The notes under the pieces were generated by a model. It had not been told where the DNA came from, made no database searches, and saw only the letters and a list, made by a program, of their open reading frames with translations. The position numbers and the translations under genes were made by a program. DNA of 64,000 bases, from the IMG/VR virus record IMGVR_UViG_3300045988_116708, positions 1 to 64,000 of that record. The stretch is one strand, 5' to 3'. Position 1 is the first letter of the stretch, and every line of letters begins with the position of its first letter. This DNA comes from a virus. This document shows, piece by piece, positions 408 to 62,962 of this stretch.

Positions 408-926
408 TTATTTAATATTTGTGCTCTTTATGTCGCTCGTTGAAATATCCGACCCACTTGCATGAGCACATCTGGCAACATTTTCCTGACGGGCAAGAGT
501 TTTTTTATTTTGTTCTTGCATTGATTCTATGGTTCTCTGCTGAGATAATACGGTTTCTGTTAATCTTGATAATTGCTCAAAGACTTCCCGGCTCATAGAG
601 ACTGAGCTACTCTGTAGTTCTAATCTTTGTTCTACAAGTTCATCTAAGATTTGTTCTCTTAATTTTTCTTTATTACTTCTAGGGACACTTTTTTCAATAA
701 TGCCAGCTATAGTATCTCCTTTTATAAACATTGGCACATCGGCTCCATCTAGCCATCCTGGGGTTAAGTGATACTTGCTTTCTAATAAATATTTGTTTTT
801 ATCTGTTAGGGATACATTCCCGATTTCTATCTGTGAATAACTATTTTGCTTCATGCATAGAACTTCTGCAAGTTGCGATTGAGTCATTCTTAGATATTTT
901 CTCAGATGTTTTAATCTATTATCCAT
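408..926 (-). CDS. XRE/cI-type HTH repressor
   Basis: The N-terminal LRKYLRMTQSQLAEVLCMKQNSYSQIEIG is an HTH_3 motif. The gene is divergent from a Cro-like gene across a 93-bp promoter region. Confidence 0.8.
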   Translation of the reverse strand: MDNRLKHLRKYLRMTQSQLAEVLCMKQNSYSQIEIGNVSLTDKNKYLLESKYHLTPGWLDGADVPMFIKGDTIAGIIEKSVPRSNKEKLREQILDELVEQRLELQSSSVSMSREVFEQLSRLTETVLSQQRTIESMQEQNKKTLARQENVARCAHASGSDISTSDIKSTNIK

Positions 927-2989: not shown

Positions 2990-3832
2990 ATGGAGGAAAA
3001 TAATCAAGTTACAGAATTACAGATTATTCAGGCCAAACAAGCGGCTGAGTTTGCAATGACACCAGTAGGACAAACCGTGAAACAGTTTGAGGTCATGCAG
3101 CGCATGGCTAAGATGTACACTGAAAGTACAATTGTTCCTGAAGCTTATAAAGGGAATACAGGAAATTGTGTGATTGCGCTTGATATGGCAATGAGAATGA
3201 ATGCTAATCCGTTAATGATAATGCAGAATCTCTACGTTGTCAAGGGAAACCCGTCATGGTCAAGCAAGTTCCTTATCGCTACCATTAATATGAGTGGCAG
3301 ATATACTTCACTCAGATATCGGAAAAGAACGCTGGGGAAGGTTGGTAAAGTAAAATACAATGAAACAGTGTGGGATGCCACAAACAGACGCAATACAATC
3401 GTTGTAAAAGAGTTTGACGGTACTGATGTGGATAATATTGAATGTATTGCTTATGCCACTGAACTTTCTACTAAAGAAGTTCTTGAATCAGATCCGATAA
3501 CTATTGAAATGGCAATAAAAGAAGGGTGGTATACAAAGTCTGGGAGCAAATGGGTTACAATGCCAAATCTGATGCTTACTTATCGTGCGGCTGCTTTCTG
3601 GCAACGCGCCTATTGTCCTGAAATATCAATGGGATTCTTAACCAAGGAAGAAGTTGAAGATATTCAGGATACAGAATATGATGAAATTATTGATAAATCA
3701 GCAAAAGCTAATAAACTTGCCGAAATCGCAGCAAAAGCCGCAGGAGTTGAAGAACAACCAAAAGCAGAACAGCCGGTAAATCAGCCCCAAACTAAAGCAA
3801 ATGATAAACCTATTCAAAAAACGTTGTTATGA
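2990..3832 (+). CDS. recT: RecT-family single-strand annealing protein
   Basis: NCVIALDMAMRMNANPLMIMQNLYVVKGNPSWSSKF matches the RecT core pattern. It is followed by a YqaJ exonuclease. Confidence 0.8.
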   Translation: MEENNQVTELQIIQAKQAAEFAMTPVGQTVKQFEVMQRMAKMYTESTIVPEAYKGNTGNCVIALDMAMRMNANPLMIMQNLYVVKGNPSWSSKFLIATINMSGRYTSLRYRKRTLGKVGKVKYNETVWDATNRRNTIVVKEFDGTDVDNIECIAYATELSTKEVLESDPITIEMAIKEGWYTKSGSKWVTMPNLMLTYRAAAFWQRAYCPEISMGFLTKEEVEDIQDTEYDEIIDKSAKANKLAEIAAKAAGVEEQPKAEQPVNQPQTKANDKPIQKTLL

Positions 3833-4761
3833 TGGAAAATGATGGTGAAATATGGAAAGATATAGTTGGATATGAGGGTAGATACCAAGTGTCCAACTAT
3901 GGAAGAATTAAATCTCTTGATATTAACTTGCATAAACGTGATGGAAAGATAGAGTTTAGGAAAGGTAAAATTCTTAAAGCCAGTTTAAGCGCGTTTGGCT
4001 ATCCTCAGTACTGCTTTAGTTCCAGTTTTGGTAAACGAAAGCTCATGAGGATACATAGAGTTGTAGCAGAAACTTTTATTCCTAATCCTGATAAAAAGCC
4101 ATTTATTGATCATATAAATCGTATAAAGACAGATAATAATGTTAATAATTTGCGATGGTGCACAGGCAAGGAGAATATGAATAACCCATTAACAAGGGAA
4201 TGGTTGAAAAACTGTAGGCCAAGTTTCCACCATTCAGAAGAAGTTAAGAAAAAGATAGGGTTATTAAACAAAGGACGCATATTTAAAGAATCTACAAGAG
4301 AAAAACTCCGTATTAGAGGATTTCCAGTAATGCAGTTTACTATAAGTGGTGATTTTATCATGGAGTATAAAAGTCCTTATTATGCTCAAAGTGAGACAGG
4401 GGCATTACGAACCCATATTGTAGCTTGTTGTAATGGAAAAAGGAAAACAGCTGGTGGGTATAGATGGGTCTATAAAAAAAATTATAAAGGGAAGGATCTA
4501 CCTAATTTGGCAAATAAAAAGCGCATATACAAAACAGGTTATAAGCAAACAAAACAGGCTATAATAAATATGCGTAAATCTAAAGAAAAATACCGTAAAG
4601 CGGTATTAGTCTTTTCATTAGACGGTTCGTTTCTGTCTGAATATCCTTCAATTATTGAAGCAGGCAATGCAACAGGCACAAATTTCGGCTCAATATGTAA
4701 TTGTTGTAGGGGTAGAATTGGACAATCAAATGGTTACAGATTTAAATATAAAGATATATGA
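3829..4761 (+). CDS. HNH homing endonuclease (NUMOD4 + HNH_3 + C-terminal NUMOD/IENR-like DNA-binding repeats)
   Basis: WKDIVGYEGRYQVSNYGRIKS is a NUMOD4 motif. HRVVAETFIPNPDKKPFIDHINRIKTDNNVNNLRW is an HNH motif. GGYRWVYK and NGYRFKYK are repeated DNA-binding modules. Confidence 0.85.
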   Translation: MMENDGEIWKDIVGYEGRYQVSNYGRIKSLDINLHKRDGKIEFRKGKILKASLSAFGYPQYCFSSSFGKRKLMRIHRVVAETFIPNPDKKPFIDHINRIKTDNNVNNLRWCTGKENMNNPLTREWLKNCRPSFHHSEEVKKKIGLLNKGRIFKESTREKLRIRGFPVMQFTISGDFIMEYKSPYYAQSETGALRTHIVACCNGKRKTAGGYRWVYKKNYKGKDLPNLANKKRIYKTGYKQTKQAIINMRKSKEKYRKAVLVFSLDGSFLSEYPSIIEAGNATGTNFGSICNCCRGRIGQSNGYRFKYKDI

Positions 4762-5441
4762 TGAATTACAATTTTAAACAAAGGACCATAGGATGGATGC
4801 GTGAGCGTCTCGGAAACATTACTGGTAGCAATGTCGGCTTGCTTATGAAAAGCGGAAGAAACGACATGTTCAGCGATACTGCCAAAAATTATATTTTCCA
4901 AGTTGCGGCAGAACGGGCTATGAATCCAGAAATAGTTAATGATGATGTTGCGTTCGCCGAATATTTGTCTACTGTCAATGTAGAAAGCAAAGCAATGAGA
5001 TTCGGAACAGAGCAGGAAGCAAGTGCACGTGATTTGTATTCAAGACTGACAGGAAGGCATATTGTAGAAGTGGGGGCGTGTAAGCACCCCACTATCCCAA
5101 ACTTTGCAAGTAGTCCTGATGGTTTCTTCTACGATGAAGAGTTGAGGGAACGTGGATGTATTGAGATAAAATGTCCGTCTCAAAACACATTTATGAAATA
5201 TAAGAGTGAAGTTTATGATAATGATTCACTTCTCCAAGTTAAATATGAATATTTCTATCAGTGTATGGCACATGCAATGTGTTGTGATGCAGACTGGGTT
5301 GATTTTGTAGTTTACAACCCTTTCCAAATAGACCCTATTCACATTGTTCGTATACTACCAGACGAAAAGGTCTTTGCGGAAATGGAGAAACGCATTAAAA
5401 TGGCGGACGATATTATTAACCAAATAGCAGACATTGAATGA
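4758..5441 (+). CDS. YqaJ/lambda-Exo-like recombination exonuclease (PD-(D/E)XK)
   Basis: Contains RTIGWMRERLGNITGSNVG, GTEQEASARDLY, SSPDG and IEIKCP motifs. Confidence 0.8.
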   Translation: MMNYNFKQRTIGWMRERLGNITGSNVGLLMKSGRNDMFSDTAKNYIFQVAAERAMNPEIVNDDVAFAEYLSTVNVESKAMRFGTEQEASARDLYSRLTGRHIVEVGACKHPTIPNFASSPDGFFYDEELRERGCIEIKCPSQNTFMKYKSEVYDNDSLLQVKYEYFYQCMAHAMCCDADWVDFVVYNPFQIDPIHIVRILPDEKVFAEMEKRIKMADDIINQIADIE

Positions 5442-5668
5442 TGAAATCGGACATTATAATTAAACAATTAGATAATGGATGTTTTGATGTCCATGTAGAT
5501 GATAAAAGCACAGAACAGCTATCATTTGATGAAATGCTTGGAGTGGTTGCACAATTGACTGTCCCAGAAAATAAAAGATGTCTTCAATGGCTCAAGACAA
5601 AAGAGCAACATGAGTCTTTCAGGAACAGAAACAACTTTAAAAACAGTAATAATGGAGAAAACATATAA
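5438..5668 (+). CDS. Hypothetical protein
   Basis: 76-aa ORF; its start overlaps the upstream stop (ATGA). Confidence 0.5.
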   Translation: MMKSDIIIKQLDNGCFDVHVDDKSTEQLSFDEMLGVVAQLTVPENKRCLQWLKTKEQHESFRNRNNFKNSNNGENI

Positions 5669-5900
5669 TGCTCAGCAAGCAATAATTGCTCAAAAAGAAT
5701 ACTTGAAAGAATTAGCCAAAAACAACCAAGCTGATTGGATGGCTGATAATTTTTCAAAAGGGATAGGGTTTGCCCCGTCTAATGGTATATGCTACCGTTG
5801 CAAAAAGCAAATTTATTCCGAAGGTGGAATATCAGTTGAGAGAGCGAGTACAGAACTTACTACCGGTTGTCCATTTTGCCACACTTCATATGTTGATTAA
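5652..5900 (+). CDS. Small zinc-ribbon protein
   Basis: Internal ATG of track ORF 5610..5900. Contains CYRC...CPFC cysteine pairs. Confidence 0.5.
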   Translation: MEKTYNAQQAIIAQKEYLKELAKNNQADWMADNFSKGIGFAPSNGICYRCKKQIYSEGGISVERASTELTTGCPFCHTSYVD

Positions 5901-5915
5901 AAAAACGATAGAGTA

Positions 5916-6836
5916 ATGAATACACAATTAGCAATCCAAGAAACCGACCTAGAACTGGTCGTAAGCGAAAAGACGTTAGGCAGTCTTACTACCAACGCAA
6001 AGCAAATCAGAGATATTGTAATGGCAAACCTGCCTAAGTACGATATATCCAACTACACGGATGATAACATTGACCAAGCAAAGAAAGACAAGGCAGCTTT
6101 AAACAAGGCGGCGAAAGCCCTCAATGCCAAACGTCTTGAAATTGAGAAAGAGTTTATGAAACCTTTCGGGGAGTTCAAGGACGTTGTAACCGAAACCGTA
6201 AAACTTATTGGTGAGTGCTCCGCTAGGATTGACACGGTAGTCAAGCAGAACGAGCAGCAATACAAGGACAAGAAGAAAGCCACTATCAAGACCTACTTTG
6301 ATGGAATGAACGTAAATCTTGTAGACTTTAACAAGGTGTTCAAACTGGAATGGCTCAACAAATCCGCAAGCATGAGGTCTGTATGCAACGAAATTGATTC
6401 CATATTCTCCAAAGTCGAGAACGAACTTTCCACGCTGAATGGGTTTGGTGAGGATTTCGATGTCCTCCGTACTTATTATATGGATACGCTCAACATCACA
6501 TCCACCATTCAGTATGCCAACCGTCTGAAAGAGCAACGTGAGCGTGCCAAAGCAGCAGAAGAGGCGCGCATCAAGGCAGAGCAGGAAAGAAAGGCTTCCG
6601 AAGAAGCCCGTAAAGCTGCTGAAGCAGAACAAGCCAAATCCCGTCCGATCAATCCGTTTGCCATGGCAGGACAAAAATCCAACGAACAACCTCCTTTTAT
6701 TAATCATCCCGAAGTACAACAGCCTGAGCTGTTAACGAGAGCTTTCAAGGTTACTACTACCCGTGAGAATATCATTGCTTTGGGTGACTTCATGAATGAA
6801 AAAGGTATTGATTTTGATAAAATAGAATTGCCATGA
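5916..6836 (+). CDS. DUF1351-like phage protein of the recombination module
   Basis: The N-terminal pattern AKKDKAALNKAAKALNAKRLEIEKEFMKPF is typical of DUF1351 as I recall it. There is an acidic/basic coiled-coil tail. Confidence 0.5.
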   Translation: MNTQLAIQETDLELVVSEKTLGSLTTNAKQIRDIVMANLPKYDISNYTDDNIDQAKKDKAALNKAAKALNAKRLEIEKEFMKPFGEFKDVVTETVKLIGECSARIDTVVKQNEQQYKDKKKATIKTYFDGMNVNLVDFNKVFKLEWLNKSASMRSVCNEIDSIFSKVENELSTLNGFGEDFDVLRTYYMDTLNITSTIQYANRLKEQRERAKAAEEARIKAEQERKASEEARKAAEAEQAKSRPINPFAMAGQKSNEQPPFINHPEVQQPELLTRAFKVTTTRENIIALGDFMNEKGIDFDKIELP

Positions 6837-7150
6837 GTGAAGCTGGAAAAGAATACAGACAATTTGTAAAACAGCGAAGAGAAGAACGCTATAGTCAATT
6901 TGTAAACTCAACCCTTCCTGCCATCAAATCTTTAGGCTATGAAGTTATTCAACGAAATGATTATGGATTCGAATTCATTGTTCCTAAAAAAGGATTTGGC
7001 TGGGTTATATTCTACCCCAAGGGTGATAGGATATTATTGTGCAAACAAAATAAATGGATATATGGTGGTTTCTCTTGGATTCGCAAACATATACTTAAAG
7101 GCAATGGAAGTATGCAAAACAGATGTACAGACTATTATTCGGCTTCTTGA
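6833..7150 (+). CDS. Hypothetical protein
   Basis: 105-aa ORF with its start coupled to the upstream stop. Confidence 0.5.
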   Translation: MSEAGKEYRQFVKQRREERYSQFVNSTLPAIKSLGYEVIQRNDYGFEFIVPKKGFGWVIFYPKGDRILLCKQNKWIYGGFSWIRKHILKGNGSMQNRCTDYYSAS

Positions 7151-7254
7151 TAAGAGTGCAGAGCTAATTGATAAATATTGTAAGAAGCCTTGTGAGTGTG
7201 ATAAAGCAAGACAATGCAGGAAAATTAGTAAGAAACTTAAAAATAAAATTGACA

Positions 7255-7731
7255 ATGAAAACTTTGCAAATCAGTGAACAAAAAGCTAGAGAACTCTACA
7301 AAAGTGGTTCCAGCGAGTTAAAATCTATTTTGGAAGAGTCTTTTGGAAAAGATTTTTTCTCTCAAAAGATAACAGATAGAGTTAAAACCTATGAAGATGC
7401 ATGTCGCGAATTAAGTACCAGTCCTCTTGATGAAAATAAGTTGATGAAACTCGGTCTTACTAAACATGATATTGCTTATCAAAAGTTGGTAACCATTATC
7501 AAGGCCCTTAACGAAGGTTGGGTACCGGATGTATGTGATAGTAGTGTATATAGATGGTACCCGTGGTTCAAGACTAATGGTTCTCCTTCCTCTTTCGCTT
7601 TCGACGGTTCGGATTGCGGTAGTGCGTTTGCGATTGCGGGTAGCGGGTCTCGCCTTTGCTTGAAAAGTAAAGAATTGTCAGAGTATTGTGGTAAACAATT
7701 CATTGACCTTTGGAAACAGTTCATTATTTAA
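7255..7731 (+). CDS. DGR variable protein 1 (target gene carrying VR1)
   Basis: ATG at 7255 of track ORF 7168..7731. Paralogous to 7747..8127 (ALNEGWxPD, YPWF, SSFAF, AIAGSGSRL, QFIDxWK). VR1 lies near the C-terminus. Confidence 0.85.
   Translation: MKTLQISEQKARELYKSGSSELKSILEESFGKDFFSQKITDRVKTYEDACRELSTSPLDENKLMKLGLTKHDIAYQKLVTIIKALNEGWVPDVCDSSVYRWYPWFKTNGSPSSFAFDGSDCGSAFAIAGSGSRLCLKSKELSEYCGKQFIDLWKQFII
7582..7655 (+). repeat. DGR variable repeat VR1
   Basis: 74 bp. It differs from the TR at 13 positions, all of them TR adenines. Confidence 0.9.
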
Positions 7732-7746
7732 CTAAATATTATCATC

Positions 7747-8127
7747 ATGAAAAAAGAAAATAAAAAGATTACAGAGTTAGTCAAAACGTTTGAGGATGCC
7801 CGTAAGCTGACCGGCAGACCGGATGTTCCTGACTTTTCCAATCTTCCCACTGACATGCGCAAACATTTTGAGGCACAGTATAAGATGATTGTAATTGCAG
7901 AAGCCCTTAACGAGGGATGGATTCCTGATTGGGATAATTATAATGAATATAAGTATTATCCTTGGTTTGAAATGTCTCCTTCCTCTTTCGCTTTCCTCGG
8001 TTCGGCTTGCGATGGTGCGATTGCGATTGCGGGTAGCGGGTCTCGCCTTAAATTTCGGACACGCGAGCTTGCAAATTATGCAGCAGAGCAATTTATTGAT
8101 ATTTGGAAAGATATCCAGATAGGATAG
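7747..8127 (+). CDS. DGR variable protein 2 (target gene carrying VR2)
   Basis: 126-aa paralogue of the upstream target; VR2 lies near the C-terminus. Confidence 0.85.
   Translation: MKKENKKITELVKTFEDARKLTGRPDVPDFSNLPTDMRKHFEAQYKMIVIAEALNEGWIPDWDNYNEYKYYPWFEMSPSSFAFLGSACDGAIAIAGSGSRLKFRTRELANYAAEQFIDIWKDIQIG
7975..8048 (+). repeat. DGR variable repeat VR2
   Basis: 74 bp. It differs from the TR at 14 positions, all of them TR adenines. Confidence 0.9.
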
Positions 8128-8150
8128 GATATAAAGGTTGCCTGTCCTTG

Positions 8151-8224
8151 TCTCCTTCCTCTTTCGCTTTCAACGATTCGAATTACGATAATGCAAATGC
8201 GAATGCAGGTAGCAGGTCTCACCT
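8151..8224 (+). repeat. DGR template repeat (TR)
   Basis: 74-bp non-coding copy with 18 adenines, giving the AAY-rich frame SSFAFNDSNYDNANANAGSRSHL. It lies directly upstream of the RT. Confidence 0.9.
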
Positions 8225-8331
8225 ATGTTACAATAATCCAATGGGCAGGGGCCTCACCTCTTGGTGGAAAATAACAATTCAAACGGTGTCGGTAGGGCTT
8301 ATCCGAAGACTCTTATTAGAAACAAAGGCTT

Positions 8332-9318
8332 ATGAAACGATTTGGAAATTTATACTATCGTATTTGTGACATTGATAACCTTTACCTTGCATATACCAAA
8401 GCAAGAAAAGGCAAGGGAAATACTTATGGGGTCATTCAATTTGAGAAAGAATTGGATGACAACATAAATACCCTTCATAAGGAACTGTCAGAAGGTAAAT
8501 ACGTTACTTCTGAATATCAAACTTTTATCATACATGATCCTAAGGAACGTGAAATATACCGGCTCCCTTTCCGTGATCGTGTTGTTCATCATGCGATAAT
8601 GAATATCCTCGAAGATATATGGACTCCGATATTCATTTCACATACTTATTCATGTATTAAGGGCAGAGGTATCCATGGAGTAATGAAACATCTAAAGAAA
8701 GATTTGAAAGATATCCAAAATACAAAATATTGCCTGAAAATGGATATTCGTAAATACTATCCGTCAATAGATCATTTGATACTTAAGAATATTGTCCGAA
8801 AGAAGGTTAAGGACAAACGTCTTCTTAAGTTACTCGACGGTATTATTGATTCTGCTCCAGGAATACCTATCGGTAATTATCTTTCTCAGTTCTTTGCAAA
8901 CTTGTATCTATCTTACTTTGACCACTGGCTTAAAGAGGAAAGACGTATAAAGTATTATTATAGATATGCTGATGATATGGTAATACTTTCATCAAACAAA
9001 GAAGAGCTTCACTCTCTGCTTGGAGATATAAAATCATATCTGCATAATAAGCTTCATTTAAATTTAAAAGACAATTATCAAATATTCCCGGTTGATAATA
9101 GAGGAATTGACTTTGTTGGCTATGTTTTCTTTCACACTCATATTTTAATGCGGAAAAGTATCAAGAAAAACTTCTGTAGAAAAGTAGCAGTGTTGAACAA
9201 AAAGAAAACTACATCCTGCAACTGCAAGATAGCACTTTGTTCATGGATGGGATGGGCAAAACATTGTAATTCAAAGCACTTAATTAAAACTGTAATCAAA
9301 AATGAAAAGGTTTTCTGA
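8332..9318 (+). CDS. DGR reverse transcriptase
   Basis: Contains PKEREIYRLPFRDRVVHHAI, LKMDIRKYYPSIDH, GIPIGNYLSQFFANLYL and YYRYADDMVIL. These RT motifs 1-5 include the DGR-typical GxxxSQ. Confidence 0.9.
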   Translation: MKRFGNLYYRICDIDNLYLAYTKARKGKGNTYGVIQFEKELDDNINTLHKELSEGKYVTSEYQTFIIHDPKEREIYRLPFRDRVVHHAIMNILEDIWTPIFISHTYSCIKGRGIHGVMKHLKKDLKDIQNTKYCLKMDIRKYYPSIDHLILKNIVRKKVKDKRLLKLLDGIIDSAPGIPIGNYLSQFFANLYLSYFDHWLKEERRIKYYYRYADDMVILSSNKEELHSLLGDIKSYLHNKLHLNLKDNYQIFPVDNRGIDFVGYVFFHTHILMRKSIKKNFCRKVAVLNKKKTTSCNCKIALCSWMGWAKHCNSKHLIKTVIKNEKVF

Positions 9319-9619
9319 TTTTGGAATTGATATTGACGCGGGACGTAATATTTTCCCTGTACAGCAAATATCAATAACCGATATACTCAACTGTGAGATA
9401 GAGGTACTTGACTATGAATCTGGAGTTAAAACTCAACATGGAGATAATCGTTGCGTAGTCAAGATTAGGCATGAAGGAGCTGAATATAAATTCTTTACTA
9501 ACTCTTCTCCGATAAAAGAGGCACTTAGTAAAATTTCCAAAGAAGATTTTCCATTTATAGCTACAGTACGTATCAAGAAAATAGGTACTGGTAATAATAA
9601 AATGTATTATTTCACTTAA
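9302..9619 (+). CDS. Hypothetical beta-rich protein coupled to the RT
   Basis: 105 aa; its start overlaps the RT 3' end by 17 nt. Confidence 0.6.
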   Translation: MKRFSDFGIDIDAGRNIFPVQQISITDILNCEIEVLDYESGVKTQHGDNRCVVKIRHEGAEYKFFTNSSPIKEALSKISKEDFPFIATVRIKKIGTGNNKMYYFT

Positions 9620-9625
9620 AAGATA

Positions 9626-10117
9626 TTGTATATGAAAATTACAATCAATAAACCAACTGAATTTGAGGCTGTCTACCTGAAAGTAGATGCAGGTGTTCGC
9701 TATTGGGAGGATGCAATAGTAAACGGAATAAGAGACATTGATTTATACGAGAGTAATGGTATAGGCAGCCCTCTTATTCCTTGCGCTGTACAAATAAAAG
9801 AAGAACCTGACTATAATATATATTCAGACCATTATCGTTGGAGACCTATTATAACGATTGAAACTGGTCGAATAGTCAACTGGATGCAGGGAACAACTGC
9901 TAATGTTCACTACAAAGTGTGTGATGATTTTATATGTGATATTGTTGATGAAGATGATAGTGCTATTGTTTCTTATGACGGCTATGTGCCTAAGATCATG
10001 TGTCCGGCAGATAAAGGATATGGTGACTATATCATTATGAATATTGACGAAAACGGATTTATTCAAGGATGGAATAAGGAACTAATTAAAGAACTTGTAA
10101 AACAAGAGGAGGATTAA
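9626..10117 (+). CDS. Hypothetical protein
   Basis: 163-aa acidic ORF. Confidence 0.6.
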   Translation: MYMKITINKPTEFEAVYLKVDAGVRYWEDAIVNGIRDIDLYESNGIGSPLIPCAVQIKEEPDYNIYSDHYRWRPIITIETGRIVNWMQGTTANVHYKVCDDFICDIVDEDDSAIVSYDGYVPKIMCPADKGYGDYIIMNIDENGFIQGWNKELIKELVKQEED

Positions 10118-10119
10118 TT

Positions 10120-10737
10120 ATGGCAATGCATACATGGTTTGAGTGCAAGATCCGTTACGAAAAGGTGATGGATAACGGAATGCAGAAGAAAGTGACGGAA
10201 CCTTATTTGGTAGATGCACTTAGTTTTACAGAAGCAGAAGCACGTATTATCGAGGAGATGACTCCATTTATAACAGGAGAATTTACCGTTTCCGACATCA
10301 AACGAGCTAACTATAGTGAACTTTTCCCCAGTGACGAGGAAAGTGCTGACCGCTGGTTTAAGTGCAAACTGATCTTTATCACCCTTGACGAGAAAAGCGG
10401 TGCCGAGAAAAAGACTTCTACCCAAGTGATGGTTCAGGCTGCCGACTTGCGCGACGCAGTGAAGAAACTGGACGAGGGCATGAAAGGAACAATGGCTGAT
10501 TATCAGATCGGTATGGTATCTGAAACTTCTATTGTAGACGTATTCCCTTATGAAACTAAAGAAGGAAGTAATACTACAGAAGATAAAGAGGTAGTTCGCT
10601 TTATTGATAAGTTCCCTGAAGGGCAATGTACCGAAACTACAGTAGGTGGAAAACCGGTTATCGTTGATAAGACTGGAGGTAAAACAAAAGTAATCCCTAA
10701 CAATAAATCAGATACTAATGAAGGAGATCAACAGTGA
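10120..10737 (+). CDS. DUF4494-like protein
   Basis: MHTWFECKIRYEKVMDNGMQKKVTEPYLVDALSFTEAEARIIEEM matches my recollection of the Bacteroidota DUF4494 family. Confidence 0.6.
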   Translation: MAMHTWFECKIRYEKVMDNGMQKKVTEPYLVDALSFTEAEARIIEEMTPFITGEFTVSDIKRANYSELFPSDEESADRWFKCKLIFITLDEKSGAEKKTSTQVMVQAADLRDAVKKLDEGMKGTMADYQIGMVSETSIVDVFPYETKEGSNTTEDKEVVRFIDKFPEGQCTETTVGGKPVIVDKTGGKTKVIPNNKSDTNEGDQQ

Positions 10738-10868
10738 AGAATATTTGCCAGATTGGGCGATAATTGAAGACTAGTTTAAAAGCGAGGAACGATGAGTGTT
10801 ATTTGTTCCTCTCTATGTGATAAGCTATCTACTACGAATTTACTATAAAGAATAAATAAGTTATAATT

Positions 10869-11669
10869 ATGGCAGAATTTTATAATATGGGAGAACTTAT
10901 TCCTATCAGAGAAAATAACGGTCAAAGAGCCGTTAACGCACGTGATTTACATGCTTTCCTAGAAAGTAAGCAACAATTTGCTGACTGGATCAAGAATCGT
11001 ATTGACAAGTATGATTTCATTGAAAATCAGGATTATGTAGTTTTTCATAATTCTATGAATAACCCATCTGGCGGTCGCCCCCAAAAAGAATACGCCTTAT
11101 CCATAAACATGGCGAAAGAACTTTCCATGATTGAGAATAACGTACGTGGGAAGCAAGCAAGAAAGTATTTCATCAATTGTGAAGAATTTGCCACTCAAAA
11201 AATTGTAGAAGAAAAGAAAAGTACTAAACGTGAACCATCACTAACAACTAAAGTCCGTGTTGGTCTTGAATGGGTAAAAGGCGTAAGTGAAGTGCTTAAT
11301 CTAAATGATTCTTCTAAATTATCTTTAATTAGTAAAGTAGCTGCACCTCTTGGACTTCCGACACCTGATTATACTCCGTCACATGGGATACTTAAATCCG
11401 CTACTGAATTGCTCAAAGAAGCGGGTTTGTCTATCAGCGCACAGGCGTTTAATCAAAGAGCGATTCGGAAAGGTATCTTATGTGATATTAAAAGGAAATC
11501 ATCAAAAGGTAAAGATAAGCATTTCAAATCAATAACCGAATCCGGGCTTCTATATGGTGAGAACCAAGTCAACCCTAATAATCCTAAAGAAACGCAGCCG
11601 CTTTGGTATAAAGATAAATTCAATGAATTATTGATGTTACTTGATTTTAAACTTGTTGAAGCGTTATGA
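10869..11669 (+). CDS. AntA-domain phage antirepressor
   Basis: NNGQRAVNARDLHAFLESKQQFADWIKNRIDKYDFIENQDYVVF is an AntA/AntB N-terminal motif. Confidence 0.75.
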   Translation: MAEFYNMGELIPIRENNGQRAVNARDLHAFLESKQQFADWIKNRIDKYDFIENQDYVVFHNSMNNPSGGRPQKEYALSINMAKELSMIENNVRGKQARKYFINCEEFATQKIVEEKKSTKREPSLTTKVRVGLEWVKGVSEVLNLNDSSKLSLISKVAAPLGLPTPDYTPSHGILKSATELLKEAGLSISAQAFNQRAIRKGILCDIKRKSSKGKDKHFKSITESGLLYGENQVNPNNPKETQPLWYKDKFNELLMLLDFKLVEAL

Positions 11670-12073
11670 CATACGAAGAAATGAAATCTAAATATTGTGG
11701 AACCAATATTCGCAGGAAGCCAAAAAGTGAAGAACATAAGATACAGGCGTCTTGTATCCGTTGGTTCCGTCTCCAATACCCCCAACTAAGGAATATACTG
11801 TTTGCCGTTCCTAACGCAGCAAGAAGAAGTGCTAGAAACGGGGCATACATGAAAGAAGAAGGGATGCTTTCGGGAGTTGCAGATCTGATACTTCTTAAAA
11901 GTAATCGTTTCTACGGTGCTTTGTGTATAGAAATGAAAAAGCCTGGTAAATACCAAAGGGTAGTACAAAAAGAATGGCAAAAGGAATGTGAAGCGGCTGG
12001 AAATAAATATGTCGTTGTCCGTTCCCTTGACGAATTTATCAAAGTGGTAACCGATTATTTGAATAACATGTAG
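11666..12073 (+). CDS. VRR-NUC domain nuclease
   Basis: EEHKIQASCIRWF...GVADLILL...ALCIEMKKPG...Q..W is a PD-(D/E)XK VRR-NUC pattern. Confidence 0.75.
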   Translation: MTYEEMKSKYCGTNIRRKPKSEEHKIQASCIRWFRLQYPQLRNILFAVPNAARRSARNGAYMKEEGMLSGVADLILLKSNRFYGALCIEMKKPGKYQRVVQKEWQKECEAAGNKYVVVRSLDEFIKVVTDYLNNM

Positions 12074-18047: not shown

Positions 18048-18238
18048 CACCGTGAAAATAATGAATCATCTTAGTGGTGTTTGATGACAAAAGGATATTA
18101 AATAGGCTTTCTTGGAGTATATACCCTAAACACCACATCAAGGGTATAGAAACTCGAAAGCCTTCGCTTTTTATAGATGAATACAATAGGCATACATGGC
18201 AAATCCATTGGTTAATTTCTAAAATACTAGATTTAATT

Positions 18239-19222
18239 ATGTCGAGACCTAATAAGACAGGTTTGAGTTATTTCCCAATGGATGTTGATTTATTCCAAGA
18301 CATACGAATAAGGAAACTAATCAAGTATCAGAGTGGCAAGGCTATAACAGTATATGCTCTCCTGCTATGTCTTATCTACCAGCGTGGGTACTACATGAGG
18401 TGGGATGAAGAGTTGCCCTTCATTATATCGGAACAAACCGGGTTTGAAGAGGCGTATATACTGGAGGTCATCAGAAGCTGCATGACACTAGGGTTATTCT
18501 CCAAGAAACTGTATGATGACGAACAAATCATTACGTCAAAAGGGATTCAAGAGCGATACCTGTATATATGTAAACTGCTCAAAAGAAGAGTGAGCATTAC
18601 TGAATATTTGCTTATTGATGAAGAAAAGGAGCTTGTTACTTCTCAAGAAACCGGGGTTATTTCCGGAAAAACCCCGGTTATTTCCGAAGAAACTGCTTTA
18701 AATTCGGTGAAAATGCAACAAAAGAAAAGAAAGGAAAAGGAAATAAAAGAAATCTCTCTATTGAGAGATAAAGAAAAGTTTCCCCCTCCCGAGGTTGTAG
18801 ACAAAACATTAAGCGAATGCTATGATGAACTATCATGTGACAGAAGTTGGATTGAAATCGTAACGATGAATACACGTAATTCCGGTCATAAGGATTTTAC
18901 GATAGACATGTTCGGAATGTATTTAAAACGTTTTTTCGAGAAGCTCCAAAACGAGGGAGAGGTAAGAAAGTCTCCCAAGGATGCAAAATCGCATTTCTCC
19001 CGTTGGTTGAATATTGAACTGAAAAAGAAAGGCAATTATGAACCAAAACCAATTACCAACAACATCTACGAGCAGAAGCGAATTGATTCTGAGCGGAGAA
19101 AATCTAAACTCATGGCTGAGTTCGCAGAAGCGGACGCAAAATTCCTTGCAGAACAAGAAGCTAAACGAAAAGCAGTTGGCTTTATTGGAGAAATATCCGA
19201 CACCTTCCCGGATGGCGGTTGA
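18239..19222 (+). CDS. Replisome organiser (DUF4373 / Lin1244-like, DnaD-related N-terminal domain)
   Basis: GLSYFPMDVDLFQDIRIRKLIKYQSGKAITVYALLLCLIYQRGYY matches the N-terminal DUF4373 pattern. ATG at 18239 of track ORF 18074..19222. Confidence 0.7.
   Translation: MSRPNKTGLSYFPMDVDLFQDIRIRKLIKYQSGKAITVYALLLCLIYQRGYYMRWDEELPFIISEQTGFEEAYILEVIRSCMTLGLFSKKLYDDEQIITSKGIQERYLYICKLLKRRVSITEYLLIDEEKELVTSQETGVISGKTPVISEETALNSVKMQQKKRKEKEIKEISLLRDKEKFPPPEVVDKTLSECYDELSCDRSWIEIVTMNTRNSGHKDFTIDMFGMYLKRFFEKLQNEGEVRKSPKDAKSHFSRWLNIELKKKGNYEPKPITNNIYEQKRIDSERRKSKLMAEFAEADAKFLAEQEAKRKAVGFIGEISDTFPDGG
18647..18695 (+). repeat. Intragenic direct/inverted repeats (GGTTATTTCCGrA x2)
   Basis: CCGGGGTTATTTCCGGA and CCCCGGTTATTTCCGAAGAAAC. 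The same core occurs inverted at 33555-33575 and 47321-47360. Confidence 0.6.
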
Positions 19223-33539: not shown

Positions 33540-33630
33540 TGTATGCAATAACCTCAGTTTCTTCGGAAATAATACGGTATTATTCCGTGATTAATCACTG
33601 ATTATTCACTGATTGATCACTAAACGATAC
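33540..33630 (+). repeat. Repeat R1: 13-bp and 52-bp blocks identical to 47307-47393, then TCACTGATT iterons
   Basis: TGTATGCAATAAC and CAGTTTCTTCGGAAATAATACGGTATTATTCCGTGATTAATCACTGATTATT are both exact copies of the 47.3-kb locus. Confidence 0.75.
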
Positions 33631-33695
33631 GATAAGTACTCTGTGAATATTCTCAATTTATGCAGAAAAGAATATGTGGTGATTTGGAAGTTTGC

Positions 33696-33703
33696 TACCT
33701 TTG
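33696..33703 (+). promoter_or_regulatory. -7 promoter box TACCTTTG inside the IR-flanked segment
   Basis: Matches the TAnnTTTG consensus and faces the right IR and gene 33919. Confidence 0.45.
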
Positions 33704-33918
33704 TAACCGAAAACACTTCTTTTGTGTTTTCATTGCTCTTATGTGCACTGGCTTGTGAAAGTCGGTGCCATTTTTGTTCTATGTCAAAAGTTAAATCTTT
33801 GATTTAGAGAGGTTTGTTGTAAAAATAAAAGTGTAAATCTTTGGATAACTCGTTGATAATTATTATCTTTACAATACAAAAAGAAACCAATAATACTAAC
33901 AATTAAAAGACAAGAGCA

Positions 33919-34101
33919 ATGAAATCAACAACAATCCAACAGAGAATAATAGAAAAGTTCATCATGTCAGAGTTTGTACAAGGTAACTTAGATACAAAAG
34001 AACAAGTAAGCTGTATGCTTATCCTGATTCAAAAGAAGCTGAATATGTCAGTAGAGCAAGCAAGTGACTTTATGAGAAAATCAATTGGTATTAACGCTTA
34101 A
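33919..34101 (+). CDS. Hypothetical protein
   Basis: 60-aa ORF. Confidence 0.45.
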   Translation: MKSTTIQQRIIEKFIMSEFVQGNLDTKEQVSCMLILIQKKLNMSVEQASDFMRKSIGINA

Positions 34102-34112
34102 TACACACGATT

Positions 34113-34430
34113 ATGAAAGTATATGATATAAATGGCAATGTAGTAGCAGAAGGCTATTTAGTTCCCAATCCCAATTTCATTCCTAAAGGTGAATACAAAG
34201 AAACTGAACTGGATTATCAAAAGAAGCAAGCTGATATGTTGATAACTTCAATTGATGGCAGTTTCTATGAAATCAGTTTGCCTAAAAATGCTACACTTCG
34301 CCAGAAGATAAGCAAAGATATAAAAGGATATGGCAGAAACGTAAGAAGGTATAATGAAGATATAATTCATGTAACAGAAAAAGTCCTAAAGATTTTGCAA
34401 ACTAAATATACTATAATGTGTGACTTTTAA
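34113..34430 (+). CDS. Hypothetical protein
   Basis: 105-aa ORF. Confidence 0.5.
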   Translation: MKVYDINGNVVAEGYLVPNPNFIPKGEYKETELDYQKKQADMLITSIDGSFYEISLPKNATLRQKISKDIKGYGRNVRRYNEDIIHVTEKVLKILQTKYTIMCDF

Positions 34431-46430: not shown

Positions 46431-46501
46431 GCGGAGATGGTGTAATGGTTGCATATATATCATCCAGATATCAGGTTACGGTTCAAATCCGTATCTCCGC
46501 T
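46431..46501 (+). tRNA. Phage-encoded tRNA-like gene, best read as tRNA-Gly(UCC) with an atypical anticodon loop
   Basis: Acceptor GCGGAGA/TCTCCGC. D-arm GTGT-AATGGTT-GCAT. T-arm TACGG-TTCAAAT-CCGTA. Discriminator T. Anticodon arm TATAT-CATCCAG-ATATC, with A at position 33 and a T-C mismatch at the stem top. Confidence 0.55.
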
Positions 46502-46578
46502 CTGTTTTTTGAGAATCTGATTTGTTGTTCATAATTTAATGTCGGTTGTCTGTGAAGATAGCCGATAAAAAATAATTG

Positions 46579-48927: not shown

Positions 48928-50322
48928 TTAGTATTGTTTGTATTGCTTAGATACCTTATATTCTTTTCCTGCATAATTAAATGTCCAAATAAATATAGGC
49001 AAATAAACATATCTCATTTGACCGCCTAAATTTGTTGTTTGTCCGGCTGCTAAAGCGCCCAATTTTGATGCATCATCTGTATATAATACAATATTTTCAC
49101 TCAATCCATCTTTTACCTCAAACTTAGTAAGAGATATCTCTTTAGAACTTGTGTTGGTTATGTAACAATACACAGACCCTGTTATATAACCATTAATGGA
49201 TACAATAGATGAAGAGCTTATACCCAGATTCATAAAATCGGAAATCTCAGCTGATACAACTTCGCAAGTGGCAGTATGGGCACCATCTTCTGTAGTTATT
49301 GTTATTGTAGAAGTACCTTCCTTCAATGCTGTAACCTTTCCATTATTGTCTACAGAAACAGTGTTGGGTGCAGAACTGCTAAATTTTACATTTTTATTCT
49401 CTGCATTTTCAGGTAAAATAGAATATGTCAATGTATAGCTTTCTCCATTCAGAATCTTAACTGAAGATTCTGTAAACTGAACTCCTTTTACCGAAAAAGG
49501 CAAAACATTCACAGTACACTGCGCTTTAAAATTCCCATCATTAGTAGTGGCAATTATGTTACATGTACCTTTTGCCAATGCAGTCACCAATCCGTCTTCT
49601 ACCTTTGCAATATTAGGATCGCTGGAAGACCATTTGATACTTTTGTCCTTTGCATTTTCAGGAGATACAGTAGCTGTTAGAGTAAATGACTTGCCGGCTT
49701 CAATAGATTTAGTTGTTTCATTCAATGTAACTCCTGTAACCTTAATAGGATTCACTTTAACAACACATTTGGCGTAGGTATCACTTCCTTTGACTTTGAC
49801 TGTAATAGTACATTCACCATCGGAAACGGCTGTAACCTCGCCATCTGCATTAACCGTTGCTATAGTTTTATCCGAAGACTCCCACTCCACTTCTTTGTTG
49901 GTAGTATTTTCAGGTTCTATCGTATACTCCAAACGGAATGATTCACCGGTAGTCATCGTCTTCTCACTCTCAGATAGTTTGATATCAGTTGCTTCAATTG
50001 GAGTTACAGTGACCTTACATATATCTTTCAATTTTAGATTAAAAGAAGAAACTGATATAGTAACCTCTCCAACAGACTTTCCATAAACAATACCGTTTTC
50101 AACAGTTGCAATTGTTTCATCAGAAGAATTCCATTCATATTCGGGAGCGGGTAAATCTGCTGGCGAATGGCTGACAGTGAGAGTTATTTTCTCACCAACC
50201 TTTACTGAAGCTTCACTTTTAGAAATTTCGATAGATTGTACAACAGGTTTGTCATCATCGCCACAAGAAGATAATGATAGAATAGAAACAATAGATAGTA
50301 ACAATAAAATAGTTCGTTTCAT
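48928..50322 (-). CDS. Surface lipoprotein with five tandem Big_2 (bacterial Ig-like) domains and an unknown C-terminal domain
   Basis: Signal/lipobox LSLSSCG. There are five repeats of the pattern V.VG....L.....P.......W.SSD..IATV...G.VTA...G...I. Confidence 0.8.
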   Translation of the reverse strand: MKRTILLLLSIVSILSLSSCGDDDKPVVQSIEISKSEASVKVGEKITLTVSHSPADLPAPEYEWNSSDETIATVENGIVYGKSVGEVTISVSSFNLKLKDICKVTVTPIEATDIKLSESEKTMTTGESFRLEYTIEPENTTNKEVEWESSDKTIATVNADGEVTAVSDGECTITVKVKGSDTYAKCVVKVNPIKVTGVTLNETTKSIEAGKSFTLTATVSPENAKDKSIKWSSSDPNIAKVEDGLVTALAKGTCNIIATTNDGNFKAQCTVNVLPFSVKGVQFTESSVKILNGESYTLTYSILPENAENKNVKFSSSAPNTVSVDNNGKVTALKEGTSTITITTEDGAHTATCEVVSAEISDFMNLGISSSSIVSINGYITGSVYCYITNTSSKEISLTKFEVKDGLSENIVLYTDDASKLGALAAGQTTNLGGQMRYVYLPIFIWTFNYAGKEYKVSKQYKQY

Positions 50323-56932: not shown

Positions 56933-59900
56933 ATGATTAGCATTAAAGACATAACTGGCAAAATACGTTTCTCTTTCGTAGAGAATACCGGTTCTGTATA
57001 CCGTAAGACTTTGATGAAAGAAGATTATATCCTTCTTCATTTCAATGTCGACCAACCGGTTCTTTTTGAGAAGGGAGATTATTGTGAAACAGAATTCGGA
57101 CGATTTGAGATCGTTGATCTTGTATTTCCGAAGTATAACACTTCAACAGGCGGCTATGATTATGAACTCCGGCTTGACGCAGAATACTATAAGTGGAAGA
57201 ATAAGATATTGTTCTATGATCGTCAAGGTGGTAACCGCGAGGCTTCATGGAATCTTACCCGTACTCCGGATGCGCATCTATCGATAGTAGTCTCTAACTT
57301 AAAATCTTTAGGTTACACATACAACTCAGGAGTAGAATATACTTTCTCTATTGACAGCACAGTAGAGAAGTCTGCTAAGTTGATACAGTACGATAATACG
57401 AATATCATTGATGCGTTGACCAAAATAGCGGAAACATGGGACGCTGAATGGTGGATCGTTGATCATGTGATCCATCTGGGCAGATGTGAGTATAACACAG
57501 CGGTAGACTTTGAACTGAATGGGCTTGTTTCCGAAATGTCTCGTTCGGAAAGCAACGATAATTATGCTACCCGTGTTTACGCTTTCGGTTCTACCCGTAA
57601 CCTTCCTACTAATTATCGTCCGGATATAACCGGTGTTGTGGTCGACGGAGTAGTCCAAAGAAGATTGATGCTTCCCGAGGGTACTCCTTATGTTGACGCT
57701 TTTCCGGATATGTCTACGGAAGAAGCTGTTGAAGAAGTCGTTGTATTTGAGGACGTGTACCCCAAACGTATAGGTACCATGTCAGACGTGACCACTAAGG
57801 AATACACAGACAAGATTGAGAATGAAGATGGTACCACAACAGAAGTCAAATGGAATGCCTACCGTTTCAGGGATTCCGGCATAACTTTTTCAAAAGAGTA
57901 TATTATCCCCGGTCAGGAGTTAAGAATTGTATTTCAGTCAGGTCCTTTAAACGGTATGGACTTTGCTGTTACCTTTAATCCGGGTGCTGCGGATGAAAAG
58001 AACAGTGATGGATCATGGAACTCCGCTGCCCAGTTATGGGAGATCGTAAGGAATGAAGATTACGGCCGCGAGCTTCCGTCTGCCCCGTTAATCCCTGAGA
58101 ATGGGAACACTTATGTCTTGTATGGATATGATACAAAATTTGTTTCTGTGTCCATGATTCCTGATGCCGAAAAGGAATTGCTTGAAAAGACAAAAAGCTA
58201 CGTAGAGAAGAGTAAAATAGACCCGTCTGTCTATACATGCGTCATGGACCCGATAAAAGTGGGTGGATTCGATGGAGGACGCGTTATCGATTTGGAGATA
58301 GGGGATCGTGTCAATATTATCAATCCGGCTTATGCAATAAAGAGCCGGCAATCTCGTATATATGGCTTTGAAAAGGCACTGGATAAGAAGTATGAAGTGA
58401 CTTATACGGTGGGACAATCGACTAAATATTCTCGTATCGGAGAGATTGAAAGTAAAGTCGAAGCATTGACATATAAAGGAGAGGCTTTTACTGGTTCCAG
58501 TACCGGAAGTGTTTATATTGTCGGACGATACGATAAAACGAGGCTTACTGACCGTAATGCTTTATCTTCCCTTCGGTCTTTGGAAACATTTTTTAGGAAA
58601 GACCAAGAGGATGTTACCTTTTACAAACAGGCCTTTCGTAAAGGTATAGAAATCGGTTGGAATGAATCCGAAGGAAAGCCTACTGCTTCTCTCTCTGAGG
58701 ATGGTATATTAAACGCTGCCGCAGCTATATTGAAAGAATACATCTCTTCTCCGAAGTTTGTTCCGGGATTCACAGGCGAAGGCTTTAAAATATATAAAGA
58801 CGAGTATGGCAACTGGCATATAGAATGTGATATTCTAGATGTGAGGAAAGTTATGAATGTATTTGAGTTGCTTATACAGAAAGTACGTTCAATAAATGGT
58901 GCTCTTGTTATAAGCCAAGCGAACGGTAAAGTCAGTGCAGTTACTGAGACTTCTGATTTGCAATCTTGGATTCTTGAATTTGAGGATGAAGATGAAACAT
59001 TCCAGGCGCACGACTTAGTGAGGTGTCAAGTATTTGATAGAAGAATAATCCAGTCACCGGCTTTTGATTTCACAAAATTTACAGCCTATTTATATGATGG
59101 TTCAGCCATAGATGATAGCGTAAGGATAACGAACACGAGCATTGAGTTTAGCATGAATAATTCAGCAAATTCAGGCTTTCAACTTTACATGTATCCAGAG
59201 GGACATGTAGCAGATGCTCCTATAACGACTAAAGAATGCAAATTAGAAATATCTGGTTTGTATGATGGTGCTATGGCTGTATGGAGTGGTTTATCAAAGG
59301 ATGGAATCGGTTCTGATACTGTAGGAGGGCTTTTGACAAATGGCGAGAATGTAATTCGTGCCATCAATGTATCCGAAGAGATATACAACCTTGGTATAAT
59401 GATTGTATTAGATTCCGGACATGGTAACGGAAAGGTTACTGTTACTCAAAAAATGGAGGATACATCATCTAAAAAAGGTAAATACTATTGGTGCGAAGTT
59501 GCGAGTGTAAATGGTAATCTTGTAACTATTCCTAAGTCTGAATTTGAGGGTATTACGCCAACTGACGGTGATGAAGTTGTACAGATGGGTAATACTGAGA
59601 ATCCTCTTCGTCAGAGCTTGATATATATGTCGGCTGCCGAGGATGGCAAGCCTAAGATTGAGATATTAGGTGGAGTCAAGACTAAGTCATTTGCCGGAGC
59701 GTCTCGCTCTGTATTTGGGAATTTAGATCATATAACGGACCCGGATTTTCCGGATAATATGCAGCCGCACGATAATGGTGTATATACAAATAACGGTTAT
59801 TTCAAAGGCATCTTCATCCTTCGCAACGGAAAGACCATCGAACAGGAGTTTGAGTCAACCAACAAGGAAATAGACATCGCCAAAACCGATGCGAAAGCTG

Positions 59901-62900: not shown

Positions 62901-62962
62901 CAGACCTATTTATGTTTGTCTTTGATGGGACATACTGGATTTTAAATTATTGTGGAGTTTAA
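56933..62962 (+). CDS. Giant tail tip / fibre host-specificity protein with a collagen-like segment
   Basis: 2009 aa after the TMP/Dit genes, with an 85-residue G-X-Y run near the C-terminus. Confidence 0.8.
61937..62191 (+). repeat. Collagen-like G-X-Y triplet repeat (85 aa) inside the fibre gene
   Basis: [28 protein letters not shown]...[10 protein letters not shown]. Confidence 0.9.

Follow-up and report, generated by a model that had tools for sequence, protein, structure and literature searches.

A diversity-generating retroelement (DGR) in the 64,000-nucleotide stretch of viral DNA analyzed here (positions 1 to 64,000 of IMG/VR record IMGVR_UViG_3300045988_116708; the whole stretch is referred to as the window) has two small tandem genes as its sole targets. 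DGR biology has been built on surface-exposed lectin-fold binders: tail fibers, pili, and lipoproteins. The window is from a Bacteroides-type, siphovirus-like gut phage with a GC content of 37%, and its DGR, of the lineage-3 type that lacks Avd, rewrites about nine codons in each of the two genes by adenine-specific mutagenic retrohoming. On balance, the evidence as a whole is best explained if the two genes encode true DGR variable proteins that belong to a large, unnamed family of small, nonsecreted, nonstructural proteins in Bacteroidota phages, and host attachment is probably not what the system diversifies.

Variable protein 1 (the 'long' paralogue, 158 aa; 7255..7731, plus strand) and variable protein 2 (the 'short' paralogue, 126 aa; 7747..8127, plus strand) share 48% identity across 124 aligned residues (E 1e-38), and both match PHROG 11581 (E 1.7e-36 and 2.5e-24, respectively), a PHROG of unknown function. 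They share the motifs ALNEGWxPD, YPWF, SSFAF, AIAGSGSRL, and QFIDxWK, and protein 2 lacks the first ∼35 residues of protein 1. Each gene contains a 75-nt variable repeat (VR), VR1 at 7582..7656 (codons 110-134) and VR2 at 7975..8049 (codons 77-101), and a 75-nt template repeat (TR) lies in the intergenic space at 8151..8225, 5′ of the reverse transcriptase (RT) gene; all three are on the plus strand. Every one of the 28 VR-TR mismatches (14 for each VR) is at a TR adenine, and a search of the 64 kb with a degenerate A-to-N pattern finds exactly three copies, VR1, VR2, and the TR, with none in 100 shuffles. The VRs are not at the extreme C termini, the position typical of lectin-type targets; 24 residues follow VR1 and 25 follow VR2, predicted as two helices. 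The original prediction, made from the nucleotide sequence, had described tandem VR-bearing paralogues of about 158 and 126 aa with these motifs and about 25 residues beyond each VR, and it is borne out in these respects.

The same specificity is seen in related IMG/VR contigs, where 998/1026 mismatches are at template adenines (82 unique VR/TR pairs), and these contigs contain 61 unique VR1 and 62 unique VR2 sequences but only 13 unique TRs. The hypervariable residues in protein 1 are 117, 118, 120-123, 125, and 127, with residue 130 being less variable; amino acid entropy reaches 3.5 bits at nine positions and is near 0 in the rest of the VR. Within the VR core, pN is 0.35 versus a pS of 0.03, and the scaffold outside of the VR is under purifying selection, with a median dN/dS of 0.25. 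We also note that VR1 and VR2 are identical to each other within each of two relatives (L069 and L077), which suggests gene conversion between the paralogues or the use of one cDNA for both.

The 3′ ends of the repeats have the asymmetry expected of an initiation of mutagenic homing (IMH) element and its IMH* counterpart, and we regard these as putative elements. The GC-rich, IMH-like end of VR1 is GCGGGTAGCGGGTCTCGCCTT (7636..7656, plus strand) and that of VR2 is at 8029-8049 (plus strand), whereas the IMH*-like end of the TR is GCAGGTAGCAGGTCTCACCTA (8205-8225, plus strand), with A where the VRs have G/T. The four adenines at the TR 3′ end correspond to G or T in nearly all VRs examined, unlike those of the variable core, and the IMH-like VR ends sit inside coding sequence, where they encode the residues AGSGSRL. 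Both VR ends (7636-7653 and 8029-8046) can form a GC-rich hairpin of 5 bp, the loop of which is 8 nt long and beyond which the sequence is T-rich; the TR copy (8205-8222) cannot, as adenines break two of the five pairs. The hairpin may mark the VRs as acceptors. There is no long inverted repeat downstream of the VRs.

Neither the window nor related contigs of up to 76 kb contain a third VR. An exact degenerate scan of all of the IMG/VR contigs recovered no more than two or three copies in a contig, all of them clustered, and there is therefore no remote tail-protein target in this phage lineage; the sole DGR targets are the two small genes, which abut the TR and RT, and there is no VR in a tail protein. 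This differs from the Quimbyvirus/LoVEphage arrangement discussed below, in which a target far from the RT shares its TR with a tail protein. The two genes are located between the recombination module and the RT, as originally proposed, with RecT (2990-3832), an exonuclease (4758-5441), and DUF1351 (5916-6836) upstream, and the RT, DUF4494, Ant, and a replication initiator (18074-19222) downstream. They are thus in the early recombination/replication region, 49 kb from the tail fiber gene (56933-62962; 2009 aa), and the proteins have no tail-protein homology outside of the VR; the proposal that the targets are something other than the tail fiber stands. No signal peptide or membrane segment is evident in either protein, the N termini being charged and the maximum 19-residue Kyte-Doolittle hydropathies being 0.66 and 1.18, in agreement with the earlier assessment.

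The RT (328 aa; 8332..9318, plus strand) matches RVT_1 (4e-17) and PHROG 1423 (3e-131), and is 50-58% identical to the DGR RTs of crAss-like phages and 34% identical to BPP-1 Brt. No neighboring open reading frame (ORF) has a Pfam or NCBIfam match to Avd (the four-helix-bundle type), in agreement with assignment to lineage 3 (PMC5758913). An RNA motif resembling Rfam RT-17 (RF03020) is found between the TR and RT (8250..8325, plus strand), which is the expected place of the DGR spacer RNA, although the match is below threshold (33.4 bits versus a gathering score of 40.4; E 6.7e-4). Shuffled sequences fold as stably as the RNA predicted for the TR-spacer region (z 0.88). A mostly basic ORF of ∼100 aa overlaps the RT stop codon (9302..9619, plus strand); it matches PHROG 19665 and has no Pfam or NCBIfam match. 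Across Bacteroidota loci, this type of ORF and the RT are both present in 67 and both missing from 72, with the RT occurring alone in three (each cut by a contig end) and the ORF alone in one; it also adjoins the LoVEphage RT. We consider it to be a candidate accessory factor of Avd-less DGRs. Two candidates for the acidic 160-169-aa 'CH1' accessory of Wu et al. were dropped: the variable family itself, which has a pI of 6.0 ± 1.2 versus 4.7 for CH1, and the ORF at 9626-10117, which is present in only 5/70 RT-positive loci and is not co-inherited with the RT.

The tandem gene pair is nearly always present in a set of 80 related IMG/VR loci, including about 30 in which the TR and RT are absent and both VR genes are intact. 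In these (L015, L016, L019, and ∼30 other loci), neither TR nor RT is found within 6 kb or in the rest of the contig, and in a further locus (L047) the TR and the ∼100-aa ORF are kept and the RT is lost. Because these relatives keep intact VR genes in the absence of a TR or RT, we conclude that the TR-RT cassette comes and goes while the target genes persist.

The long-plus-short gene pair is conserved across the phylum. A survey of one genome per species yielded 62 loci with genes for relatives, in Dysgonomonas, Pedobacter, Chryseobacterium, Flavobacterium, Elizabethkingia, Apibacter, Emticicia, Sphingobacterium, Prevotella, Muribaculaceae, and Ignavibacteria. About half of these have two or three tandem family genes followed directly by a TR and RT, and the order is conserved, with a form of ∼150-162 aa first and one of ∼124-137 aa last. 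Mismatches are again concentrated at adenines, for example 13/14 and 15/15 in L178, 18/18, 14/14, and 17/19 in L183, and 15/15 and 16/16 in L216. The neighbors are genes for exonuclease, SSB, RecT, beta-clamp, helicase, primase, methyltransferase, and PAPS reductase, and never structural genes; arrays followed by TR and RT lie beside replication/recombination genes in Dysgonomonas, Pedobacter, Elizabethkingia, Vicingus, and Emticicia prophages. In two Sphingobacterium loci (L221:3812-4672 and L229:3737-4585), the paralogues are fused into a single protein of 282-286 aa with two VRs, one of them internal, and one TR, and the mismatches at adenines are 16/16 and 15/15 in the first and 17/18 and 12/12 in the second. 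Because the long-plus-short order is conserved and both VRs are diversified in the fusions, the paralogues likely work as a pair.

Profile searches show that the family is large, with 2199 clusters at 90% identity and ∼3900 representatives at 50% identity (E<=1e-3). Members are mostly 150-165 aa, which argues against a missed upstream exon or a fusion in the window genes, and some longer ones (250-305 aa) contain the domain twice. Searches of Pfam, NCBIfam, PADLOC, and PDB sequences with the targets, either singly or as a 121-member profile, yielded no match, and none of the 121 members matches the Mtd, FGE-sulfatase, or DUF1566 Pfam families at E<=0.01. An AlphaFold2 model of protein 1 built on the 121-sequence alignment has a predicted local distance difference test (pLDDT) score of 91.9 and a pTM of 0.85, and supersedes an earlier run on a six-sequence alignment that had pLDDT <50 across residues 91-134. 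It predicts an N-terminal helical domain (helices in 8-85), a VR-bearing β-hairpin (strands 100-106 and 115-122) followed by a variable loop of lower confidence, and two C-terminal helices (in 139-157). A Foldseek search of this model against the PDB lists no lectin-fold protein, Mtd, TvpA, and TaqVP included, the best match having an E of 1.3 and a TM score of 0.24; against a viral library, the matches are uncharacterized gut-phage proteins only, some of them crAss-like, and Mtd is not among them.

Relatives of the two proteins are also encoded by phages in which the DGR has the canonical layout of tail protein, TR, and RT. Among cultured or complete phages, family members are present in Bacteroides phage Versailles, in LoVEphage and its relatives, and in several crAss-like Suoliviridae, with tblastn E values of 1e-11 to 5e-15 to the small VR proteins of LoVEphage, Versailles, and cr56_1, and family-profile E values of 3.8e-33 (LoVEphage, gene 33613-34197), 1.6e-29 (Versailles), and 1.8e-19 (cr56_1). 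In these three phages the family gene is single, in an early or counter-defense neighborhood, and 15-54 kb from the canonical DGR; the LoVEphage gene is on the strand opposite to the tail genes, and its neighbors encode methyltransferases, PAPS reductase, and RtcB. The TR of the tail DGR matches the small-gene VR in each, with mismatches at adenines of 15/16 in Versailles, 16/16 in cr56_1, and 19/19 in LoVEphage. In cr56_1 (NC_055890 gp09; L083:5070-5477 and L084:4780-4872), the matching early-region gene is 54 kb away from the tail DGR, and this remote second target is not mentioned in the crAss-like DGR papers cited here.

Because the same TR serves both proteins in these three phages, the family VR appears to be related to the VRs of lectin-type fibers. 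The segment that it encodes is common to the small and tail proteins (GALLSA..GASAGFG.L.AN.RSS.A.A.GFRLC in Versailles), and there is no similarity between the two outside of it. An hhalign comparison of the family with the tail targets, which are annotated as Mtd/sulfatase-like, places residues 86-137 on the last ∼60 residues of the tail proteins, although the match is weak (36% probability, E 3.9e-4, 50 columns), and the family lacks the motifs that are conserved in the first ∼150 residues of the tail-target domain. The tail proteins compared end at or shortly after the VR. The canonical tail targets are not usable as a positive control for the lectin fold, because they themselves have no match in Pfam and PDB searches. 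We propose that in this family the terminal VR element of lineage-3 tail targets sits on another kind of scaffold, predicted to be mainly helical, whose fold class could be either an extremely reduced lectin or new. The earlier suggestion of a compact, possibly new scaffold therefore survives in part: the lack of Pfam, NCBIfam, PDB, and Foldseek matches agrees with it, but the VR itself is shared with lectin-type tail targets.

Nonstructural DGR targets are already known as a phenomenon in phages. The second DGR target of Quimbyvirus in Benler et al. (2021; PMC8008677) is distal, on the opposite strand, and near genes for a nuclease, methyltransferases, and a tRNA ligase; the authors called it lectin-containing and tied it to phage-host conflict, and the LoVEphage locus fits this description. 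In four Bacteroidota prophage species, Dahlman et al. (2025; PMC12629997) found a second VR that is distal and close to counter-defense genes. The original interpretation is qualified by these reports. None of the papers cited here identifies the family, shows how widespread it is, predicts its structure, or describes the dedicated cassette of tandem targets or the remote target in a crAss-like phage. The distal Quimbyvirus/LoVEphage targets are of the same family, adenine-diversified, and nonstructural, but they differ in being single genes of ∼190-200 aa with an insertion of ∼30 residues and a 113-nt VR, 15-54 kb from the RT, and sharing their TR with a tail protein, whereas here two compact paralogues lie directly 5′ of the TR and RT.

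Comparisons with other systems show a similar mixture of shared and distinct features. Lineage 3, defined by Wu et al. (2018; PMC5758913) as lacking Avd and occurring in Bacteroides and relatives, and to which Morozova et al. (2020; PMC7290462) assigned the crAss-like DGRs, resembles the window DGR in RT sequence and target-TR-RT order, but the published targets are tail-collar fiber proteins or proteins of ∼2000 aa, and those papers do not describe the small family or the ∼100-aa ORF that is co-inherited with the RT. Mtd (BPP-1), TvpA, and TaqVP are alike in the adenine-specific change of a short near-C-terminal segment, in the IMH/IMH* asymmetry, and, through the lineage-3 tail targets, in an apparently related VR segment; they are unlike the 126-158-aa, mostly helical proteins described here in having no Foldseek or HMM similarity to them, and the window genes differ in having two helices after the VR, in being outside of the tail module, and in belonging to a cassette without Avd. 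Toutatisvirus of Faecalibacterium (Egorov et al. 2024; bioRxiv 10.1101/2024.10.15.618418) also has one TR and two targets, one of them remote, and some of these phages keep the target genes without a DGR, but its targets are DUF6273 lectin-like putative receptor-binding proteins, its hosts are Firmicutes, and Avd is present. BovT and BfiT (Macadangdang et al. 2024; bioRxiv 10.1101/2024.11.15.621889) are comparatively small variable proteins of Bacteroides that have N-terminal helices and are encoded beside prophage genes, but they are periplasmic, and in their predicted structures a lectin-fold VR forms part of a head like that of a pilus-tip adhesin; the proteins described here have no export signal and no structural match of the pilus-tip type.

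The main rival to an intracellular role is that the small proteins are virion-associated accessory receptor-binding modules that dock onto the tail or fiber through the helical domain and just happen to be encoded away from the structural module, such that the DGR would still serve adsorption. We think this unlikely, even though the VR appears to be homologous to a tail-target VR with which, in Versailles, LoVEphage, and cr56_1, it has its TR in common, the family profile weakly matches the last ∼60 residues of tail proteins, and the Versailles homologue is labeled 'tail protein' in GenBank. That label is explained by the VR similarity alone, and in none of the >140 loci examined across the phylum are the genes beside structural genes, the neighbors always being recombination, replication, or methyltransferase genes; the lack of tail-protein similarity outside of the VR and the orientation of the LoVEphage gene also argue against a place in the virion. 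It is far less plausible still that the genes are functionless by-products, VR-bearing remnants that are spread by duplication or retrohoming and tolerated. The TR and RT are missing from ∼30/80 related phages, but the scaffold is under purifying selection (dN/dS 0.25), the ORFs are intact in all relatives, those without an RT included, and conservation of the family, its long-plus-short order, and its fusions extends from Bacteroides to Flavobacterium, Sphingobacterium, and Ignavibacteria.

A further alternative is that the proteins are strongly reduced but ordinary C-type-lectin-fold variable domains, a minimal version without structural novelty. This is possible, but we doubt it: the confident model has no solved lectin-fold match and Mtd is absent from the viral-library matches, the 121 members lack FGE-sulfatase, DUF1566, and Mtd Pfam matches, only ∼50 columns align with the tail targets and the motifs of their first ∼150 residues are missing, and two helices lie beyond the VR, whereas the tail targets compared end at or shortly after it. 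Nonetheless, the RT falls in lineage 3, whose VRs are classed as CLec3 (PMC5758913, PMC7290462), the VR has counterparts in tail targets that are described as Mtd/sulfatase-like, and Roux et al. (PMC8144416), who state that VR domains with an annotation are consistently lectin folds and that most viral targets are tail proteins, expect uncharacterized VR domains to be lectin-fold variants.

Several of these observations, and some others, weigh against the interpretation that we favor. Benler et al. described a C-type lectin domain in the Quimbyvirus counterpart using HHpred, in conflict with the negative Foldseek result here; Foldseek may miss a lectin-like core that is very reduced. The VR segment and TR are shared with lectin-type tail proteins in three phages, and as tail-type VRs normally bind extracellular ligands, a virion-associated role is possible. 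The family has no match in PADLOC, and the descriptions of the proteins as early, cytoplasmic, and binding defense factors would rest on gene context and missing export signals.

If the proteins are nonstructural and intracellular, as we favor, they would be made with the early recombination/replication genes or from the prophage, and would be cytoplasmic and act together as a pair. The pair would present two hypervariable binding sites, each predicted on a β-hairpin plus loop that is held by helices. Variable intracellular partners would be bound, most plausibly defense proteins or nucleases of the host, or else factors that competing mobile elements encode, and diversification would keep pace with variation in these partners rather than in a receptor. 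Such a proposed intracellular binding role is consistent with all of the evidence. More speculatively, the cassettes may constitute a phylum-wide class of DGR dedicated to intracellular proteins, consisting of paired or fused, minimal, nonlectin hypervariable binders with their own accessory replacing Avd, and acting in adaptive counter-immunity by neutralizing or sensing variable host defense or nuclease proteins or rival-element factors; we put this broader proposal forward tentatively, and it could well be wrong.

If the family does act intracellularly, targeted hypermutation would also serve an intracellular arms race, and this would explain the 'second VR near counter-defense genes' that has been noted repeatedly in abundant human-gut phages. 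The family links systems that were earlier treated separately, namely the dedicated small-target cassettes, the remote LoVEphage and Versailles targets, and the previously unreported remote target of cr56_1. A soluble-looking scaffold of 126-160 aa that tolerates about nine randomized positions is a possible minimal scaffold for engineered binders, and the co-inherited ∼100-aa ORF may offer insight into how Avd-less DGRs work.

A megablast search of positions 5000-12000 against phage records gave no useful match, and a scan for sigma-70 promoters was uninformative (25 sites versus 22.6 expected). The early arm also contains a repressor-like gene (408-926, minus strand), and between RecT and the exonuclease there is a 310-aa HNH endonuclease gene (3829-4761, plus strand) with the appearance of a mobile insertion in the recombination module. 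The structural module begins with TerL (27826), followed by the tape-measure protein and then the tail fiber. Within the structural region there is a lone tRNA-Gly gene (anticodon TCC; 46431-46502, plus strand), and antisense within the tail module is a gene for a 464-aa protein with four Big_2 Ig-like domains (48928-50322, minus strand), which may be a decoration protein or a moron.
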